Below are positions 3,383 through 10,894 of a stretch of DNA of 11,525 bases, piece by piece. The translations under genes and the position numbers were made by a program. The stretch lies in the UHGV virus genome UHGV-1357462. One strand, 5' to 3'. Source of the DNA: a virus. Under the pieces are notes generated by a model. That model ran no database searches. It was given only the letters and a program-made list of their open reading frames with translations, and was not told the origin of the DNA. Within the stretch, counting starts at the first letter, position 1, and every line of letters begins with the position of its first letter.

Positions 3383-4129
3383 ATGCATCGTATAGACACG
3401 AAAACCGCGCAGAAGGATAAGTTCGGCGCGGGTAAGAACGGTTTTACCCGTGGTAACCCCCAGACAGGCACGCCTGCCACCGATCTGGATGATGACTACT
3501 TTGACATGTTGCAGGAAGAACTCTGCAGCGTGGTGGAGGCATCCGGTGCCAGTCTGGAGAAGGCGCGGCACGACCAACTGCTTACCGCGCTTCGTGCGCT
3601 GCTGTTAAGCCGCAAGAATCCGTTTGGCGATATCAAATCGGATGGCACGGTGAAAACGGCTCTCGAAAACCTTGGTTTGGGAGAAGGTGCTCCAGCTATT
3701 GGCGTTCCGTTCTTCTGGCCGTCCGCTGCAATGCCAAATACTGTAATCGACAGCTGGTCCAGTATGGTGTTTTTGAAGTTCAACGGCGCGAAATTCTCTG
3801 CCACTGATTATCCTGTGCTGGCGAAAGTGTTTCCTTCGCTGGTATTACCTGAAGCCCGCGGTGATTTCATTCGTATCTGGGATGACGGGCGAGGTGCAGA
3901 CGGTGGTCGCGAATTATTAAGCTGGCAGGAAGCTACAAACTTTTCTCAGTTTGCCGGGAATATAGGCGGAGGTGCGGGACACGCAATTAACTTTCATGAT
4001 GGCATCGCCGGAAATCAGCCAGGATTTTCACGATTTAATTTCACCAGTAACTCTGTGGGTGATGGTGTGAATTTTGTTGCTGTCAGACCGCGAAATATTG
4101 CATTTAACTTTCTGGTGAGGGCTAAATAA
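3383..4129 (+). CDS. Tail fibre protein: constant N-terminal part (3383-3672) fused to the currently expressed variable C-terminal part (3673-4129)
   Basis: GGAGT RBS at 3372-3376 and ATG at 3383. A 26-bp invertase crossover site lies inside the gene at 3660-3685. The stop TAA overlaps the ATG of the downstream assembly gene. The N-terminus resembles e14/Mu-type side tail fibre proteins. Confidence 0.8.
3660..3685. repeat. Invertase crossover site (pix/gix-like), left copy, inside the tail-fibre gene
   Basis: TTCTCGAAAACC-TT-GGTTTGGGAGAA: two imperfect 12-bp half-sites around a 2-bp core. 3672-3686 is a perfect 15-bp inverted repeat of 5464-5478, and 22 of 26 positions match the inverted right-hand site. 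Confidence 0.7.
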
Positions 4130-4722
4130 TGAAACCTGTTTTTGATGAAAATGGGCTGGCTACAGTGCCGGGCGATATGCGTTGTTTTTATTATGATGCT
4201 GAAACATCTGAGTATACGGGCTGGTCTGATGAATATATTAATACTGGCGTAAGTATGCCCGCCTGTTCCACTGGTATTGACCCGGGCGAAAACATTCCGG
4301 GGAAAGTGGCAGTATTTACGGGTAAGGGATGGAGCCATGAAGAAGACCATCGCAATGAGACTGTTTACTCAACAGAAAATGGCGCAGCTGTTACAGTGGA
4401 TTATATCGGTGCCATCAAAGACGGTTATGTCACGCTTTCACCGTTAACGCCATACGATAAATGGGATGGTGAGAAATGGGTGACGGATACCGAGGCACAG
4501 CATAGCGCCGCAGTAGACGCGGCAGAAGCACAACGTCAGTCACTGATTGATACTGCAATGGCTTCCATTAGTCTGATTCAACTGAAATTGCAGGCCGGAC
4601 GGAAACTGACGCAGGCAGAAACAACCCGACTTAACGCCGTGCTGGATTACATTGACGCGGTGACGGTAACAGATACCAGCACCGCGCCGGATATCATCTG
4701 GCCTGAACTGCCGGAGGCGTAG
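4129..4722 (+). CDS. Tail fibre assembly protein (Tfa / Mu U-like)
   Basis: 197-codon ORF whose start overlaps the tail-fibre stop (TAATG). Its 3' end overlaps the convergent tfa' gene; the C-terminal motif ...TSTAPDIIWPELP mirrors ...TSSAPDIEWPTPP in the - strand paralogue. Confidence 0.75.
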   Translation: MKPVFDENGLATVPGDMRCFYYDAETSEYTGWSDEYINTGVSMPACSTGIDPGENIPGKVAVFTGKGWSHEEDHRNETVYSTENGAAVTVDYIGAIKDGYVTLSPLTPYDKWDGEKWVTDTEAQHSAAVDAAEAQRQSLIDTAMASISLIQLKLQAGRKLTQAETTRLNAVLDYIDAVTVTDTSTAPDIIWPELPEA

Positions 4723-5113
4723 GCCATTCAATATCTGGCGCACTGGAAGTATCGACCAGCTCCAGTGCGTCCAGATAATCCAGCCACAAATTATATTGCG
4801 CCAGTTCCTCACCTTTCAGACGACCAATAGCCGCTTTACCAGGCCATTGCCTGCTGTTCATGTGCTCGTTGGCTTCATTAATAAGTTTTCCTTTTTTCAA
4901 CTCTGCCAATGCAATAAGGTTTTCTTTTGATAAAGGTGGTTGCTCTGTCAAAACCGGATATCCCTCCTGATTGCTGACTATTTTCATGCCATTATCCTGA
5001 CCATCCAGTAGTGACAGCCATTCATCCGTGGTTATCTCAACAGCATCTGAAGGTGCTTTATTTAAATCGGTAAAAAAACCATTTTCTTTTTGTGAATAGA
5101 AGTATCTGTCCAT
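4694..5113 (-). CDS. Alternative tail fibre assembly protein (Tfa' / U'-like), silent in this orientation
   Basis: 139-codon ORF on the - strand, convergent with and overlapping the + strand tfa by 29 nt. It shares the C-terminal motif with the + strand Tfa and lies 3 nt downstream of the alternative fibre-tip ORF. Confidence 0.7.
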   Translation of the reverse strand: MDRYFYSQKENGFFTDLNKAPSDAVEITTDEWLSLLDGQDNGMKIVSNQEGYPVLTEQPPLSKENLIALAELKKGKLINEANEHMNSRQWPGKAAIGRLKGEELAQYNLWLDYLDALELVDTSSAPDIEWPTPPAVQAR

Positions 5114-5116
5114 TTA

Positions 5117-5518
5117 TCAATCTCCAAAAGCAATCCAGTAAGCAAAAGGATTTATTCCTTGCTCAGTCACAGATGACATCAGGGAAAATTGCGATGGTGA
5201 AACAGGTAATGCTGCAAAACTAACCATTGTTGACACACCTGACCGTGCATTATCGTACGATGCAACAACACAATAATTGGTATTGCTGAAAGATATCGGC
5301 AGGGTGATATTTACAGGTGAGCCTAATGGCCCTGATGCTGATATTCCCATTTGAATGATGGTTCCATCAGGCAATTTTCTCCAGCGATTAGAACTCGGAT
5401 TTCTTTTCCAGGCTGACATATCCGGTATCTGATTTTCTCCTGTGCCTACATCCCTTTTCGCCGCTTCTCCCAAACCAACGTTTATGAAAATGCAGAAATA
5501 ACGAGCAAATGGCATCAT
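5117..5518 (-). CDS. Alternative tail-fibre variable C-terminal segment (Sv'-like), lacking its own start in this orientation
   Basis: The - strand ORF spans the right crossover site. The encoded NVGLGEAAK across the site parallels NLGLGEGA at the left site in the expressed fibre. The ATG at 5518 lies outside the invertible segment and is probably not a real start; functional coding would be 5477 down to 5117 after inversion. Confidence 0.6.
   Translation of the reverse strand: MMPFARYFCIFINVGLGEAAKRDVGTGENQIPDMSAWKRNPSSNRWRKLPDGTIIQMGISASGPLGSPVNITLPISFSNTNYCVVASYDNARSGVSTMVSFAALPVSPSQFSLMSSVTEQGINPFAYWIAFGD
5465..5490. repeat. Invertase crossover site (pix/gix-like), right copy, just upstream of the invertase gene
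   Basis: TTCTCCCAAACC-AA-CGTTTATGAAAA: same 12-2-12 architecture as Hin/Gin/Cin/Pin sites, in inverted orientation relative to 3660-3685, with the core AA versus TT. Confidence 0.7.
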
Positions 5519-6114: not shown

Positions 6115-7119
6115 TCACTGAGTGCCTTCATCTGGTTGCTCTGCTGGTAAGGTTCCAGCCTCTTCTTCAGTTTCCGCATGTTTTCCATCGCCTCCCTGGA
6201 CAGGTTCATCCCTTGGCGGTTCTGCTCTTCCTGAATTTTGGTCAGAGATTTCATCTCCTTCCTGAATTCTGCTGTTGTCATGGGAATCTTCCTCTGCGTT
6301 AGTTGTTTCATATTGTTTTTTAGGAGTTAAATCTTTAATCATCGGTTTGTCGAAGATAGAGATTTCGCCTGACGAAATCATTTCACCAAGAACTTCGTAC
6401 AGGTTGGCTGCAAAATCTGTAGGACTCTCAACATGGTTGAATAGTTCCCTCGCCTCTTTACGGTCTATCACAAAACCATGGGCTGGATATCCAGCGATCA
6501 ACTTGCCTAATGAGCTTTCCTTAAGATTTTTCGAGTGACTATTCAAACGTTCCCCATAGGAAAGCGCTATGTTCATTGCTCGCTGATGCTCCCCGAGTTT
6601 GATAGGGTCTATCTGTGAGGCCATCGGCGATATGATTGCTTCAGTAAGCTTAGCAGCAATATCTGCAGACATCTTTGTGCTAATTTGGTTTCTGTACTTT
6701 ATATCAAGTACGTATGATCTAAAGGTCGAAATAGCGCACTCTTTTATTTCATCAATCGCCGTTGCGATAACAAGGCCCGAGCTCAATTCGCCGATCTCAT
6801 CATTTTTCTTAAGTTGGATATCTAGAGGGCCAAGCTCACCCATATCACCAATCACGAGCTTATGAGCGGCGACAGCCATCAATGTTCCAGCACTTTTGCA
6901 AGGGCCAACAACTAGAACGGTGATGTGCTCATAGTTGTGTTGCAAAGCGCGGCCAATTCTATATCCTGCGCTGGGATCACCGCCATAGGTAGCGACGCAA
7001 AAAAGAACATTTTTTTGTAAACCATGGTTAGTTTTTCTTTCTTTAATCGCTTTGGTGATGTCGTGATGACCAGAGCGGTGAACATCGCCTATGTATACGT
7101 AAACGTCTGTATCTTGCAT
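6115..7119 (-). CDS. ClpP/crotonase-fold serine peptidase (ClpP / S49 / SDH-like) with a long acidic C-terminal tail
   Basis: 334-codon ORF with AGGGA RBS. By eye the core aligns to ClpP: VATYGGDPSAGYRIGRALQ vs INSPGGVITAGMSIYDTMQ, and ITVLVVGPCKSAGTLMAVAAH vs [21 protein letters not shown], placing a Ser at the nucleophile position. The last 60 or so residues are D/E/G/P-rich. No His at the ClpP His position, so possibly a Ser-Lys dyad. Confidence 0.55.
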   Translation of the reverse strand: MQDTDVYVYIGDVHRSGHHDITKAIKERKTNHGLQKNVLFCVATYGGDPSAGYRIGRALQHNYEHITVLVVGPCKSAGTLMAVAAHKLVIGDMGELGPLDIQLKKNDEIGELSSGLVIATAIDEIKECAISTFRSYVLDIKYRNQISTKMSADIAAKLTEAIISPMASQIDPIKLGEHQRAMNIALSYGERLNSHSKNLKESSLGKLIAGYPAHGFVIDRKEARELFNHVESPTDFAANLYEVLGEMISSGEISIFDKPMIKDLTPKKQYETTNAEEDSHDNSRIQEGDEISDQNSGRAEPPRDEPVQGGDGKHAETEEEAGTLPAEQPDEGTQ

Positions 7120-7427: not shown

Positions 7428-7676
7428 TTAGTGAACAAACCACTCGTCAGCAGATTCCCAGGTATCTTTCAGAGTCTCCTGAACAAAAGTTTTTGCAGAA
7501 TCCTTATCTGCGGTGCGTGTAACAGAAAGGCCATCGTTGCTGGTGGCTTTTACGATCACCTCTACATCGTCATAACGTTTACTGATGCGTCGGGTTAATT
7601 CTTCCTTTAACGCATCCACAGCACCGGTTGGCATTTTAGTCATTTTTTCTTTGGCTATGCAGATTTCAATACGCAT
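7428..7676 (-). CDS. dinI: DinI-family SOS-response protein (prophage-borne DinI homologue)
   Basis: 82 codons starting MRIEICIAK and ending …[17 protein letters not shown], closely matching recalled E. coli DinI (MRIEVTIAK…QETWESADDWFV). AGAGGGA RBS, and two LexA boxes in its promoter. Confidence 0.8.
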
Positions 7677-7689
7677 AAAAGTCCCTCTA

Positions 7690-7709
7690 CACTGTGTTTG
7701 TATACAGTA
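7690..7709 (-). promoter_or_regulatory. LexA (SOS) box, promoter-proximal
   Basis: - strand TACTGTATACAAACACAGTG, i.e. CTGT-N8-ACAG with flanking TA, close to the consensus TACTGT(AT)4ACAGTA; about 14 nt upstream of the dinI-like start and overlapping the predicted transcript start region. Confidence 0.7.
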
Positions 7710-7712
7710 TTA

Positions 7713-7741
7713 TTTTTAACTGTATGAATAAACAGTGTCAA
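7713..7741 (-). promoter_or_regulatory. Sigma70-type promoter for the dinI-like gene
   Basis: - strand TTGACA (7741-7736), 17-nt spacer, TAAAAA (7718-7713). Perfect -35 and acceptable -10, with both LexA boxes placed for repression. Confidence 0.5.
7718..7737 (-). promoter_or_regulatory. Second LexA (SOS) box, in the -35/-10 spacer
   Basis: - strand CACTGTTTATTCATACAGTT, CTGT-N8-ACAG, immediately abutting the -35 hexamer. Confidence 0.65.
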
Positions 7742-7760
7742 TAGAACAAAGATTGCTGCA

Positions 7761-8178
7761 TGTACAAATGTTCTTTGGCTACAAATACACCTACTGATCA
7801 TGTTCTGCTATGCTCTGATACCTCCAAAATGTACAATCAGCGGCATGAATTTTTCTTTGTACATATGATTGTACATAATTAAAGAGACAACAATTATGAC
7901 AAGCCTTTTGGCCGCAGAGGTAGCGAAAAGAAGAACCTTTGCAATTATTTCTCACCCCAATAATTAAGTCCAAATTAAAGCTCTTTTACTCTTTCAAAAT
8001 CCTTTCAGTTAATTGAAGTTGAGCTATATAACTCATTTAAATACATTTGTTTATGTAGCTTCTTTAATTGAAAACTCTTTCATGTAACTTTAAATCGATC
8101 AGCTTGCTTTCATCAAAAACCTGTACATATGCTTGTACATAATGTACAAAACAGCAGAGGTGTTTTGCGATTTGTACA
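7761..8178. repeat. AT-rich array of eight TGTACA(W)A motifs including a 22-bp direct repeat; candidate integrase arm sites / attP or operator array
   Basis: TGTACA at 7761, 7830, 7858, 7870, 8122, 8134, 8143 and 8173. The 22-mers at 7858-7879 (TGTACATATGATTGTACATAAT) and 8122-8143 (TGTACATATGCTTGTACATAAT) match at 21 of 22 positions. Sits between the dinI promoter and the integrase start. Confidence 0.6.
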
Positions 8179-8187
8179 AGGTGAGTA

Positions 8188-9411
8188 ATGGCGCTGTCTG
8201 ATGCGTGGTTGCGTTCAGTCGTTGGAAAGGAACGTGATAAGGTTTTGGTTAAATCCGATCGTGATGGTCTGTCTGTCAGAGTATCACCGAAAGGTCGCGT
8301 AGTGTTCCAATATCGTTATCAATGGGCAGGGAAAGGTGAGCGTCTTGATATCGGAACTTACCCGGCAACTGGATTAAAAGAGGCCAGAGAAGAAGTTATC
8401 CGTCTTCGTGGTGAACTCGAGTCAAACCGTAATCCACGATTGGTCAAGCAGGCTGAAAAACGAAAAGCTACTGAAGCCATGACGGTAGAGTCTGTGATCC
8501 GTGCTTGGTATGAAGCATATTGTGTAAAAAATAAAAAAGGTTCTGAACAGATACTTCGCTCGTTTGAGCTGCACCTGTTCTCTAAAATCGGGAATATCCC
8601 TCACGATGCAGCTACATTGCATGATTGGTTAGAAGTCCTGGAGCCTCTTAGCACTAAGACTCCAGCAATAGCAGACCGATTGCTAATTAACGCAAAGCAG
8701 GCCCATGTCTGGGCGTATAAGAGAAAGCTCATTGAAACTCGCCCGCTGTCGGATATCACGGGTAAAGATATGGATATCCGTAAAGGTCAGAAGAAACGGT
8801 TTCTGACACATGATGAAATTAAAATCCTTTATGCTGCGATCGATGGTTCTCGAATGGTTCCTAAATACCGGGCCTTCATTAAACTATTGCTGCATTTTGG
8901 TTGCCGTAGTTCAGAGCTAATTACCGCCCGGGTGGACGATTTTGATTTCATTAATAAAGTATGGACTGTACCACCAGAACGACATAAGACAGGGGAGATA
9001 ACAGGCGAACCGCTAAAGCGGCCCATTATTGAACCGGTTGAAGAGCTTATAAAGTACGCTATCTCTATGAACAATGGTTCCGATATGCTTTTTACTAAGG
9101 AAGGAAGCAGGGAACCCGTTGGTCGGACATCATTGCAGTCGCTGCCTTACAATTTAATGCAGTACGCATGGCGGTGTTTAGGATATCAATTCCCTCATTG
9201 GTCTCTTCATGACTTGAGACGTACAGCTCGAACAAATTTTTCTGATCTTACTGCGCCTCATATCGCAGAAATTATGCTTGGTCATAAGCTGCCAGGGGTA
9301 TGGCAAGTTTATGATAAGAGCGATTATCTAGAAGAACAGCGTAAAGCTTACCTGGCATGGTGGAAGAGGGTTGAATCGATTGTTAATTGTACTATCTCTG
9401 ATTCAAACTGA
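8188..9411 (+). CDS. int: Tyrosine integrase, P4-type, with an N-terminal arm-binding (DUF4102-like) domain
   Basis: 407 codons with AAGGTGAG RBS. N-terminal …GLSVRVSPKGRVVFQYRY… is typical of P4-family integrases. Catalytic-domain hallmarks are present: LHFGCRSSEL (Arg), HDLRRTART (His-x-x-Arg) and LGHK…VYDKSDY (His and Tyr). Confidence 0.9.
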   Translation: MALSDAWLRSVVGKERDKVLVKSDRDGLSVRVSPKGRVVFQYRYQWAGKGERLDIGTYPATGLKEAREEVIRLRGELESNRNPRLVKQAEKRKATEAMTVESVIRAWYEAYCVKNKKGSEQILRSFELHLFSKIGNIPHDAATLHDWLEVLEPLSTKTPAIADRLLINAKQAHVWAYKRKLIETRPLSDITGKDMDIRKGQKKRFLTHDEIKILYAAIDGSRMVPKYRAFIKLLLHFGCRSSELITARVDDFDFINKVWTVPPERHKTGEITGEPLKRPIIEPVEELIKYAISMNNGSDMLFTKEGSREPVGRTSLQSLPYNLMQYAWRCLGYQFPHWSLHDLRRTARTNFSDLTAPHIAEIMLGHKLPGVWQVYDKSDYLEEQRKAYLAWWKRVESIVNCTISDSN

Positions 9412-9697: not shown

Positions 9698-10417
9698 ATG
9701 TCAAAGTTAAAAAATGAACCATTAGTAAGGGTATCAGAAGAAGACGGAATAGAAATAAGGAAGATCCAATATCCAGATAATACGATAGAAAGAATTTATA
9801 AGCAGAAAGGTGTAATATTACCACGAATACCTTTAAAAGGCCGCTTTGTAGAACAATATGTGGCCTTACAGTTGCTTGATAAAGATCTTCGGAATGTTAT
9901 TGGTTGGGAGAATATAATAAAAAACATTTGTAATAACATTAATAAAGAACAACACTTTATTTATCCGGATTTAGAAAAGAATCTAATATTAAAGTCTTTA
10001 TTTATATCAAAAGTTGTTACTTACGGTAAGTGTTTTACAGAGGCGAAAGGGCGTCGATTCACATTGCAGAGAAAGCATGTGCCAGAAAAATACAGAGATT
10101 TACATGATTCTATTATGAATGTTAGACATAACTTTGCTGCCCATAAAGGTGAATTCGAATATGATCAATGTGGCTTGGTTTTAATATTGCCGGGGACCAA
10201 GAAGAAAAGGTACTATCATATTTTTTCAGAGCTCAATCAAATAAATTACGGTAATAATGAGGAAGATGATGAACGTTTTTTTATGTTATATGATTCACTG
10301 CGTGAAGTCATTAAAGAAAAACAAGATAAATTAATTGATAAAATATACGCTGAAAAGATTCATACTCAAACAATGGAGTATTGGTTGAGCCGAGCAGGAA
10401 AAGAAACAGAGATTTAA
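9698..10417 (+). CDS. Hypothetical protein, very AT-rich orphan cargo gene; weak HEPN-like R-x5-H motif (VRHNFAAH)
   Basis: 239 codons with a strong RBS (AAGAGGG, 10 nt before the ATG). Clearly lower G+C than all neighbours. No family recognised beyond an R-x5-H spacing compatible with the loose HEPN Rx4-6H signature. Sits between the integrase and the AlpA-like gene. Confidence 0.7.
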   Translation: MSKLKNEPLVRVSEEDGIEIRKIQYPDNTIERIYKQKGVILPRIPLKGRFVEQYVALQLLDKDLRNVIGWENIIKNICNNINKEQHFIYPDLEKNLILKSLFISKVVTYGKCFTEAKGRRFTLQRKHVPEKYRDLHDSIMNVRHNFAAHKGEFEYDQCGLVLILPGTKKKRYYHIFSELNQINYGNNEEDDERFFMLYDSLREVIKEKQDKLIDKIYAEKIHTQTMEYWLSRAGKETEI

Positions 10418-10699: not shown

Positions 10700-10894
10700 T
10701 TACTCAATCACTCCCGCAAATCTGTAAATCTTGTGTGATGCCCATTTATTTGGGCAGGATTTAATATCAGGATCTGGAAAGTCAGGCCTGTATTTCTGAC
10801 CAGTTCTCCTGTTTACGCTGTTCCAGCGAAGAACTGTCGATACTGAAACACCACAGAAATCGGCGACTTGTTTAGTTGTCATTAAGTTGTTCAT
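10700..10894 (-). CDS. AlpA/Xis-family helix-turn-helix DNA-binding protein (excisionase / transcriptional regulator-like)
   Basis: 64 codons. N-terminal TTKQVADFCGVSVSTVLRW looks like an HTH. GGAGG RBS, and the start overlaps the upstream gene's stop (TAATG). Small size and position next to the integrase region fit this family. Confidence 0.6.
   Translation of the reverse strand: MNNLMTTKQVADFCGVSVSTVLRWNSVNRRTGQKYRPDFPDPDIKSCPNKWASHKIYRFAGVIE

Follow-up and report, generated by a model that had tools for sequence, protein, structure and literature searches.

Organization of the locus

The window, by which we mean the whole 11,525-bp stretch of viral DNA analysed here (virus genome UHGV-1357462), contains tail-fibre-assembly-like genes, a protease gene, a dinI-like gene, an intergenic region of 511 bp, an integrase gene (int) and an excisionase gene, in that order. 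At the left, tail-fibre-assembly-like open reading frames oppose each other (4129-4722 on the plus strand, 4694-5113 and 5117-5518 on the minus strand) and adjoin an N-terminal fragment of a resolvase/invertase (PF00239, 5509-5901). The segment 4129-5901 resembles what remains of an invertible tail-fibre switch of the Gin/Cin type. The minus-strand gene at 6115-7119 encodes an SDH-type ClpP-like serine protease and occupies a slot between the tail-fibre genes and dinI/attP that elsewhere carries TIR-domain and reverse-transcriptase genes (NZ_CP019281) or cdtABC (phage cdtI). Compared between the window (6115-7119), locus L005 (6854-8483) and locus L220 (251-2351), the slot has the appearance of a hotspot for morons or defence genes. 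The dinI-like gene (7428-7676, minus strand) is preceded by two perfect LexA-box-like CTGT-N8-ACAG sites (7692-7707 and 7720-7735; 0.11 expected in the window), which overlap a predicted TTGACA-18-AAAAAT promoter; as these sites stand directly beside the left arm of the attachment site described below, an SOS-controlled promoter would abut attP.

The integrase gene (8188-9411, plus strand) encodes a tyrosine recombinase, Int, with an N-terminal Arm-DNA-bind_3 domain (PF13356, amino acids 3-90, 60.3 bits against a cut-off of 27), a Phage_int_M domain (PF22022) and a catalytic domain (PF00589), i.e. the arm-binding, core-binding and catalytic domain content of a heterobivalent integrase. The excisionase gene (10700-10894, minus strand) encodes an AlpA-like HTH_17 recombination directionality factor (RDF); its product matches phrog_1553 'excisionase' with an E value of 4e-36, its match to HTH_17 itself is weak, and the cdtI homolog is annotated as excisionase. 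Between the two genes lies an open reading frame of unknown function (9698-10417, phrog_8440). The excisionase gene directly adjoins the 3' end of int in Trabulsiella, Pantoea, Serratia and Symbiopectobacterium, and at the corresponding position cdtI has a different 2.1-kb open reading frame and NZ_CP019281 an AIPR-family gene, making this a second variable cargo slot.

The attachment core lies within a phage-supplied prfC start

Searching complete E. coli genomes and phage records, we found a few matches that cover the entire region (phages 2H10, cdtI and Ayreon and a circular record of 33.7 kb) and very many chromosomal prophages that match one side of it only. The core was mapped by aligning the window with three sequences: the attR (dinI...prfC) and attL (yjjG-prfC'...int) of a single genome, and the unoccupied attB of K-12. 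The 14 bp at 7944-7957 (ATTATTTCTCACCC, no strand assigned) are the sole stretch common to attP, attL, attR and attB in this four-way alignment, implying that strand exchange must fall within them, at a position corresponding to prfC codons 17-21; the identical 14 bp are carried as an insertion duplication in the annotation of Stx2c phage records. Taken together, the one-sided prophage matches and the four-way alignment indicate that the window holds an intact attP, of which attL and attR each contain one half. Its left limit is approximate and was placed at about 7727, where homology to phage Ayreon begins. Judged from these alignments, the segment from about 7727 to 8187 (no strand) is the attP, with P arm, core and P' arm, of a prfC-targeting lambdoid temperate phage. 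The data are best explained by an integration module of the cdtI / 2H10 / Ayreon / Stx-phage type, which inserts into host prfC, the gene for release factor 3, at its 5' end. This module is common to phages with otherwise different genomes (Stx1, Stx2c, cdtI, Ayreon and 2H10). A perfect 7-bp inverted repeat, AATTATT-N9-AATAATT (7943-7965, no strand), encloses the overlap and could plausibly serve as a pair of core-type Int sites.

The core is embedded in a replacement for the 5' end of prfC. Positions 7896-7964 (plus strand, beginning MTSLLAAEVAKRRTFAIISHP, with the ATG at 7896 and 21 codons to the core) encode MTSLLAAEVAKRRTFAIISHPNN followed by a stop codon, which is the start of release factor 3. 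In attP this reading frame ends at that stop codon; at attR it is fused in frame to host prfC, which is annotated there as full length and beginning at the phage ATG. In a lysogen, the host RF3 gene therefore begins with phage sequence and lies downstream of phage DNA: the insertion falls in the 5' coding end, and the start codon supplied by the element restores the gene. Of 5426 complete E. coli genomes, 649 carry the dinI-prfC junction that marks this arrangement.

TGTACA boxes flank the core on both arms

The window contains eight copies of the hexamer TGTACA, at 7761, 7830, 7858, 7870, 8122, 8134, 8143 and 8173, and none outside 7761-8178. An earlier reading made from the letters alone (the sequence-only reading) had pointed to this cluster as exceeding chance, and had suggested looking for the motif elsewhere in the element; the excess is confirmed, and the rest of the window gave no further copy. 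Shuffles of the whole window gave a mean of 2.45 copies and at most 7, and 5000 dinucleotide shuffles of the 511-bp dinI-int intergenic region (GC 0.33), in which TGTACA is the commonest hexamer, gave a mean of 0.31 and a maximum of 4. The two 22-bp blocks noted in that reading (7858-7879 and 8122-8143) are indeed identical at 21 of 22 positions, and they form the first part of a longer direct repeat of 35 nt with 80% identity overall. The consensus TGTACA(W)A given in the sequence-only reading is borne out in part: TGTACAW fits all eight boxes, and TGTACAWA fits six, the exceptions being 7830 (TGTACAAT) and 8173 (TGTACAAG). With flanks included, the consensus is approximately TTGTACATA.

The boxes form two clusters with the core between them; the 250 bp separating the clusters contain no box, and no TGTACA is present in the core, so the repeats flank a core defined by attP, attB, attL and attR and differ from it in sequence. 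The P arm consists of two single inverted boxes and a tandem pair. Box 1 (7761-7766, minus strand, reading TTGTACATG) and box 2 (7830-7835, minus strand, reading ATTGTACATT) lie 187 and 118 bp left of the core centre, and boxes 3 and 4 (7857-7880 with flanks, plus strand, TTGTACATATGA followed by TTGTACATAATT, 12-bp spacing) 90 and 78 bp left of it, the pair being located 17-38 bp upstream of the phage-supplied prfC ATG. The P' arm has a tandem pair and two inverted boxes. Boxes 5 and 6 (8121-8144 with flanks, plus strand, CTGTACATATGC followed by TTGTACATAATG, again with 12-bp spacing) lie 174 and 186 bp to the right of the core centre, their positions relative to the int ATG being -66 and -54; box 7 (8143-8148, minus strand, 195 bp) is inverted and abuts box 6 to give the palindrome TGTACAT-A-ATGTACA; and box 8 (8173-8178, 225 bp) stands beside the int Shine-Dalgarno sequence AAGGTGAG. 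Box 8 is assigned to the minus strand, its orientation being ambiguous in E. coli; in relatives it is an inverted copy, ATATGTACAC. It ends 10 nt before the int ATG (8188); the sequence-only reading had placed the array directly before the int ribosome-binding site. Boxes 6/7 and box 8 also form an imperfect inverted repeat of 21 nt (8132-8180, 71% complementary), and pairing between them in the int leader RNA could partly occlude the Shine-Dalgarno sequence.

Integration moves the two clusters about 40 kb apart, to the two ends of the prophage. Of the 13 TGTACA copies in the complete cdtI genome, 8 belong to attP, and the two arms are the only places with tandem pairs, which argues against a regulator with further operators.

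The boxes are conserved with the integrase

The phage collection contained no Int relatives at 60%-95% identity; genome and viral contigs supplied the intermediate ones. Prophages sharing the prfC core were found with Int identities of 83% (Trabulsiella, Pantoea), 65% (Symbiopectobacterium), 64% (L169), 61% (Serratia) and 51% (L137). Their P' arms, about 165 nt long, have diverged so far that practically nothing but the boxes can be aligned with the window; the tandem pair and the box nearest to int still keep nearly constant offsets from the int ATG. The distance from core to pair is 162-167 nt in most prfC-core relatives and 133 nt in L137, and no TGTACA other than these boxes is present in the genome-contig loci, each of 4.2 kb. 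When 27 distinct E. coli-type P' arms are compared, variation is seen in 55 of 206 columns outside the boxes and in 0 of the 24 box columns (Fisher P = 0.0016), and the tandem pair of boxes 5 and 6 is invariant. Conservation of boxes 1, 2 and 7 is limited to close relatives. Box 7 is kept in the group with 83% Int identity, degenerate in Symbiopectobacterium and absent further out; box 1 is retained in cdtI, Ayreon, the Stx2c attR and L235/L238/L242, and in all three left-flank contexts encountered (dinI type, Ayreon/L238 and L235).

For the P arm, viral contigs were scanned with a prfC 5' coding pattern, yielding attR-type junctions with quite different phage-supplied prfC N-termini. Diverged junctions (L224, L225/227/228/240, L226, L231, L237 and L239) carry a (T)GTACA pair with 12-bp spacing at the same offset from the core/prfC anchor as boxes 3 and 4; one of them, L226, is the other end of the L137 prophage.

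A motif-only scan of viral contigs (IMG/VR) with TGTACA-N6-TGTACATAA, a pattern that itself imposes the TAA tail of its matches, returned at least 120 loci, many of them by chance, and at least 25 with an Int homolog directly downstream in the same orientation. Among the matches listed, these homologs range from 99% down to about 26-33% identity and are mostly at other chromosomal sites. As far as these sequences tell, the boxes track the integrase and not the chromosomal target. One such locus, L182, has an apparently intact attP with a TGTACA pair on each arm, about 260 bp apart, and its target seems to be the 5' end of a gene for a HAD-like hydrolase. Compared by eye, L182 (1-560) and the int-upstream region of L163 show an Int relative (37-39% identical) with TGTACA pairs, the HAD-like hydrolase gene that it seems to target being on the other strand; within the attP presumed for L182 lies a look-alike of the start of that gene (MERPIIIFDMD versus MEKPILLFDMD), which would be another case of 5'-end replacement. 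The viral contigs also include dense TGTACA arrays (L101, L107, L129, L161 and L179) of 5-9 copies within 500 bp, some with a periodicity of 9-12 bp and with no BLAST-detectable homolog of the window Int nearby. These may be the arm sites of more distant integrases or something else. A further TGTACA-dense locus, L171, has no integrase and was treated as unrelated.

Within Int, the N-terminal domain is better conserved than the remainder in every TGTACA lineage, with identities of 86 versus 65%, 74 versus 53%, 65 versus 43% and 55 versus 32% in four of them. Its beta-hairpin, GLSVRVSxKGxVxFQYRY, is invariant across 15 lineages. Integrases associated with other boxes differ here: the Int of a phage with TGTCCA boxes has S29W and Q41F in the beta-hairpin, and the Ints of P4 and CP4-57 (IntA) differ more widely. 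With few outgroups, this pairing of box variants with N-domain variants is suggestive of co-variation between the repeats, which are conserved across relatives, and the arm-binding domain.

Int is the probable reader of the boxes

Considering the location of the core between the clusters, the arm-binding domain of Int, the co-variation across lineages and a layout like that of P4, we assign a probability of about 0.8 to the reading of the TGTACA boxes as arm-type sites for the N-terminal Arm-DNA-binding domain of Int in a P4-type attP. This was among the roles proposed in the sequence-only reading, and the comparison with integrated copies suggested there places the core at 7944-7957, between the box clusters; a core elsewhere, with this region absent or non-conserved in relatives, was not encountered. 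Int is thus the likely reader of the boxes. The N-domains would bind the TGTACA boxes and the catalytic domains the core, forming a P4-type intasome in which arm- and core-bound Int bridges bent DNA, as in phage lambda and P4. The constant arm geometry would then reflect the DNA path that the complex requires, and strand exchange inside ATTATTTCTCACCC would take the phage into and out of host prfC. Intasomes of the lambda type usually rely on a protein that bends the DNA; no match to the IHF consensus WATCARNNNNTTR occurs anywhere in the window.

The boxes might instead be read by the AlpA-like excisionase, either to bend the arms for excision or to activate or repress int transcription, or both, a role that had also been considered from sequence. 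The AlpA protein of CP4-57 acts on intA transcription, and an excisionase-family gene (phrog_1553) belongs to the module. In most TGTACA lineages a diverged homolog of it is convergent to int and thus co-inherited with the boxes. An apparent lack of an AlpA-like gene in distant TGTACA lineages, suggested by tblastn, was discarded after a local HMM detected diverged excisionase-family ORFs adjoining int in most of them, and co-inheritance by itself therefore does not tell which of the two proteins, Int or the RDF, reads the boxes. The sites of RDFs are phased direct repeats, which in KplE1 overlap the int promoter (PMC2951348). Such sites are typically direct repeats on one arm, whereas the boxes occur on both arms and in both orientations. 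The excisionase moreover diverges far faster than the boxes: its identity is 44-52% where that of the Int N-domain is 68-86%, and in distant lineages with unchanged boxes it reaches only 15-38 HMM bits. Repeats that fit an RDF better are found elsewhere. Four direct CTTTCA (CCTTTCA-like) repeats on the plus strand (7991, 8002, 8077 and 8107, spanning 7991-8112) are confined to the P' arm between core and P' boxes, and track excisionase similarity better than the boxes do. Trabulsiella, Pantoea and Symbiopectobacterium have kept them, and Serratia and L137 lack them. They are retained at excisionase identities of 52% or more; lineages in which other repeats take their place, such as AAGACA in L137, L159 and L128, have a different excisionase. 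Since the CTTTCA repeats also occupy the same position as the TorI sites in the attL of KplE1, they are better candidates for the excisionase sites than the boxes. In P4, the repeats at positions equivalent to the boxes are annotated as attP arm repeats, and the P4 protein Vis binds elsewhere. We therefore regard excisionase binding to the boxes as improbable.

Clustered short repeats in AT-rich intergenic DNA are also what replication-origin iterons or the operators of a phage immunity repressor would look like, and an iteron origin had been named as an alternative. Integration splits the array, however, and leaves its halves about 40 kb apart at the prophage ends, which is incompatible with a contiguous iteron origin; the flanking genes are dinI and int, with no replication initiator adjacent; and the module is shared by the otherwise different phages named above. 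The replication and immunity genes of cdtI lie at a distance of 7-11 kb, where TGTACA pairs are absent. The integration split and the whole-genome distribution of TGTACA in cdtI rule out both readings, whose probability we consider negligible. It is also conceivable that the 22-bp blocks are duplicated promoter elements for prfC' and int and not recombination sites, since they lie just upstream of start codons (17 bp before the prfC' ATG at 7896 and 44 bp before the int ATG), and TGTACATAAT contains the -10-like hexamer CATAAT. A consensus scan of the plus strand, however, predicted no promoter at either block, with no usable -35 element. The distal pair of L182 is not upstream of any co-oriented open reading frame, and the equivalent repeats of P4, CP4-57 and Klebsiella phage 5 are unlike promoters, whether through GC-richness or in other respects. 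In the diverged attR junctions, furthermore, the offset of the pair is fixed relative to the core, whereas its distance to the prfC' ATG is variable. This makes promoter elements as the sole identity of the blocks highly improbable; a promoter role could coexist with arm binding.

Possible control of int and hybrid prfC

As int is directed away from the core, the P' arm is at the same time the upstream region of int, and this order is retained in attL. Counted from the int ATG, the P' boxes extend from -66 to -10, so Int bound to them should hold down int expression. Features of this kind, in which arm-type sites of a heterobivalent integrase also serve as operators of int, are well known, and negative autoregulation has been shown for KplE1 IntS and PAI-I536 IntI. 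We consider the odds slightly in favour of the P' boxes of the window also mediating autorepression by Int, their position being the evidence that suggests it. The operator array proposed in the sequence-only reading survives in this secondary role, and not as a set of repressor operators. A sigma-70 promoter scan of 7600-8250 detected no consensus site on the int strand within the P' arm (7958-8187), and no terminator was predicted in 7600-8250, so transcription from the host prfC promoter could, in a lysogen, continue past the truncated prfC' and into int.

The same 22-bp block precedes both int and the phage-supplied prfC start, and Int could therefore co-regulate the two genes in lysogens; an effect of Int bound to the P-arm pair, 17-38 bp before the phage prfC ATG, on expression of the hybrid prfC is speculative. 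If it did occur, a host translation-termination factor would be under prophage control. In addition, integrases with different targets share an identical TGTACA arm code, so co-resident elements could bind each other's arms, which, if true, would mean interference or piracy between prophages and islands. Taken jointly, co-regulation of int and hybrid prfC or cross-binding between elements appears rather unlikely.

Significance

The mechanism proposed here is expected biology and involves no new principle. In the searchable literature we found no description of the TGTACA box, its arrangement at the prfC attP or its conservation across the Int lineage, and no paper that combines TGTACA, integrase and arm-type; the note on phage Ayreon mentions only overall identity to the cdtI attP. 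The analysis defines a full attP, with core, both arms and a candidate RDF region, for a very common E. coli prophage module, given that about 12% of complete E. coli genomes carry the dinI-prfC junction and that carriers include toxin phages encoding Stx1, Stx2c and Cdt-I. The motif TGTACA-N6-TGTACATAA directly upstream of int appears to be a signature of the int-proximal arm in a broad P4-like integrase lineage, whatever its target, and as such can help to delimit prophages and genomic islands. The box variants TGTACA, TGTCCA, GTACCA, GGGGCA and AGGCCC, set against variants of the Int N-domain, offer a start for an Arm-DNA-bind_3 recognition code.

Comparison with known systems

The arrangement in the window, a pair of boxes with 12-bp spacing on each arm and an inverted copy at the start of int, finds its counterparts in P4, CP4-57 and Sf101. 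Tandem pairs with 12-bp spacing are present in all three, and the further inverted copy at the int start in P4 and CP4-57, where it matches box 8 by position. P4 has the box TTGGGGGCAT, arranged as TTGGGGGCATAA and TTGGGGGCATCT on P', GTGGGGGCACAA and AAGGGGGCATAT on P and an inverted copy at the int ATG, and all these repeats carry the GenBank label 'attP arm sequence repeat'. P4 further resembles the window in its three-domain Int (annotated as 'integrase arm-type DNA-binding domain-containing protein'), in the direction of int away from the core and in the common CATAA/CATAT tail of the repeats. The two differ in the box centre (GGGGC in P4, GTA in the window), in the target (the 3' end of tRNA-Leu in P4, the 5' end of the protein gene prfC in the window) and in the distances from core to pair (53 and 112 bp in P4, 63 and 163 bp in the window). 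Their Ints are only distantly alignable in an N-domain alignment, and P4 is a satellite, whereas the window belongs to a full lambdoid phage. CP4-57 of E. coli K-12 likewise has a 12-bp tandem pair (TAGGCCCATTGA followed by TAGGCCCAACGA) and an inverted copy before the intA ATG, with an AlpA-family gene in the module; its box is TAGGCCCA, its IntA is 25% identical and its target is ssrA. Sf101 (Int 33%) has GTACCAAA boxes, with TGTGTACCAAAT pairs in 12-bp tandem in both arms, and Klebsiella phage 5 (Int 46%) has TGTCCAT/ATGGACA boxes upstream of int.

In phage lambda, a heterobivalent Int bridges arm-type sites (P1, P2 and P'1-P'3) and core-type sites (summarised in PMC2951348). The window resembles lambda in having arm sites on both sides of the core and tandem P' sites about one helical turn apart, and differs from it in the arm-binding domain family (PF13356 in the window) and the site consensus. 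Lambda int, moreover, is not preceded by its own P' arm and is without such autoregulation, and the clear IHF sites of lambda have no detectable equivalent in the window. The SXT/R391 ICEs, for which prfC 5'-end replacement has been described, integrate at prfC with the same 5'-end arrangement as in the window; this is a likeness of strategy, SXT being an ICE of roughly 100 kb and the window part of a phage.

For autoregulation, the nearest parallels are P4 and KplE1 (CPS-53). A passage in PMC2951348 gives P4 Int as repressing its own gene by binding DNA near the transcription start. In the attL of KplE1, the int promoter region lies between core and int, the P' arm-type sites are nearest to int, the RDF (TorI) sites lie between those and the core and overlap the int promoter, and IntS is negatively autoregulated, binding and repression having been shown experimentally (PMC2951348). 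The order proposed for the window, core, CTTTCA repeats, TGTACA boxes and int, mirrors this attL; KplE1 differs in that its arm sites have a TAAA motif, its target is the tRNA gene argW, and its binding and repression come from experiment, where those in the window are deduced from the arrangement of sites.
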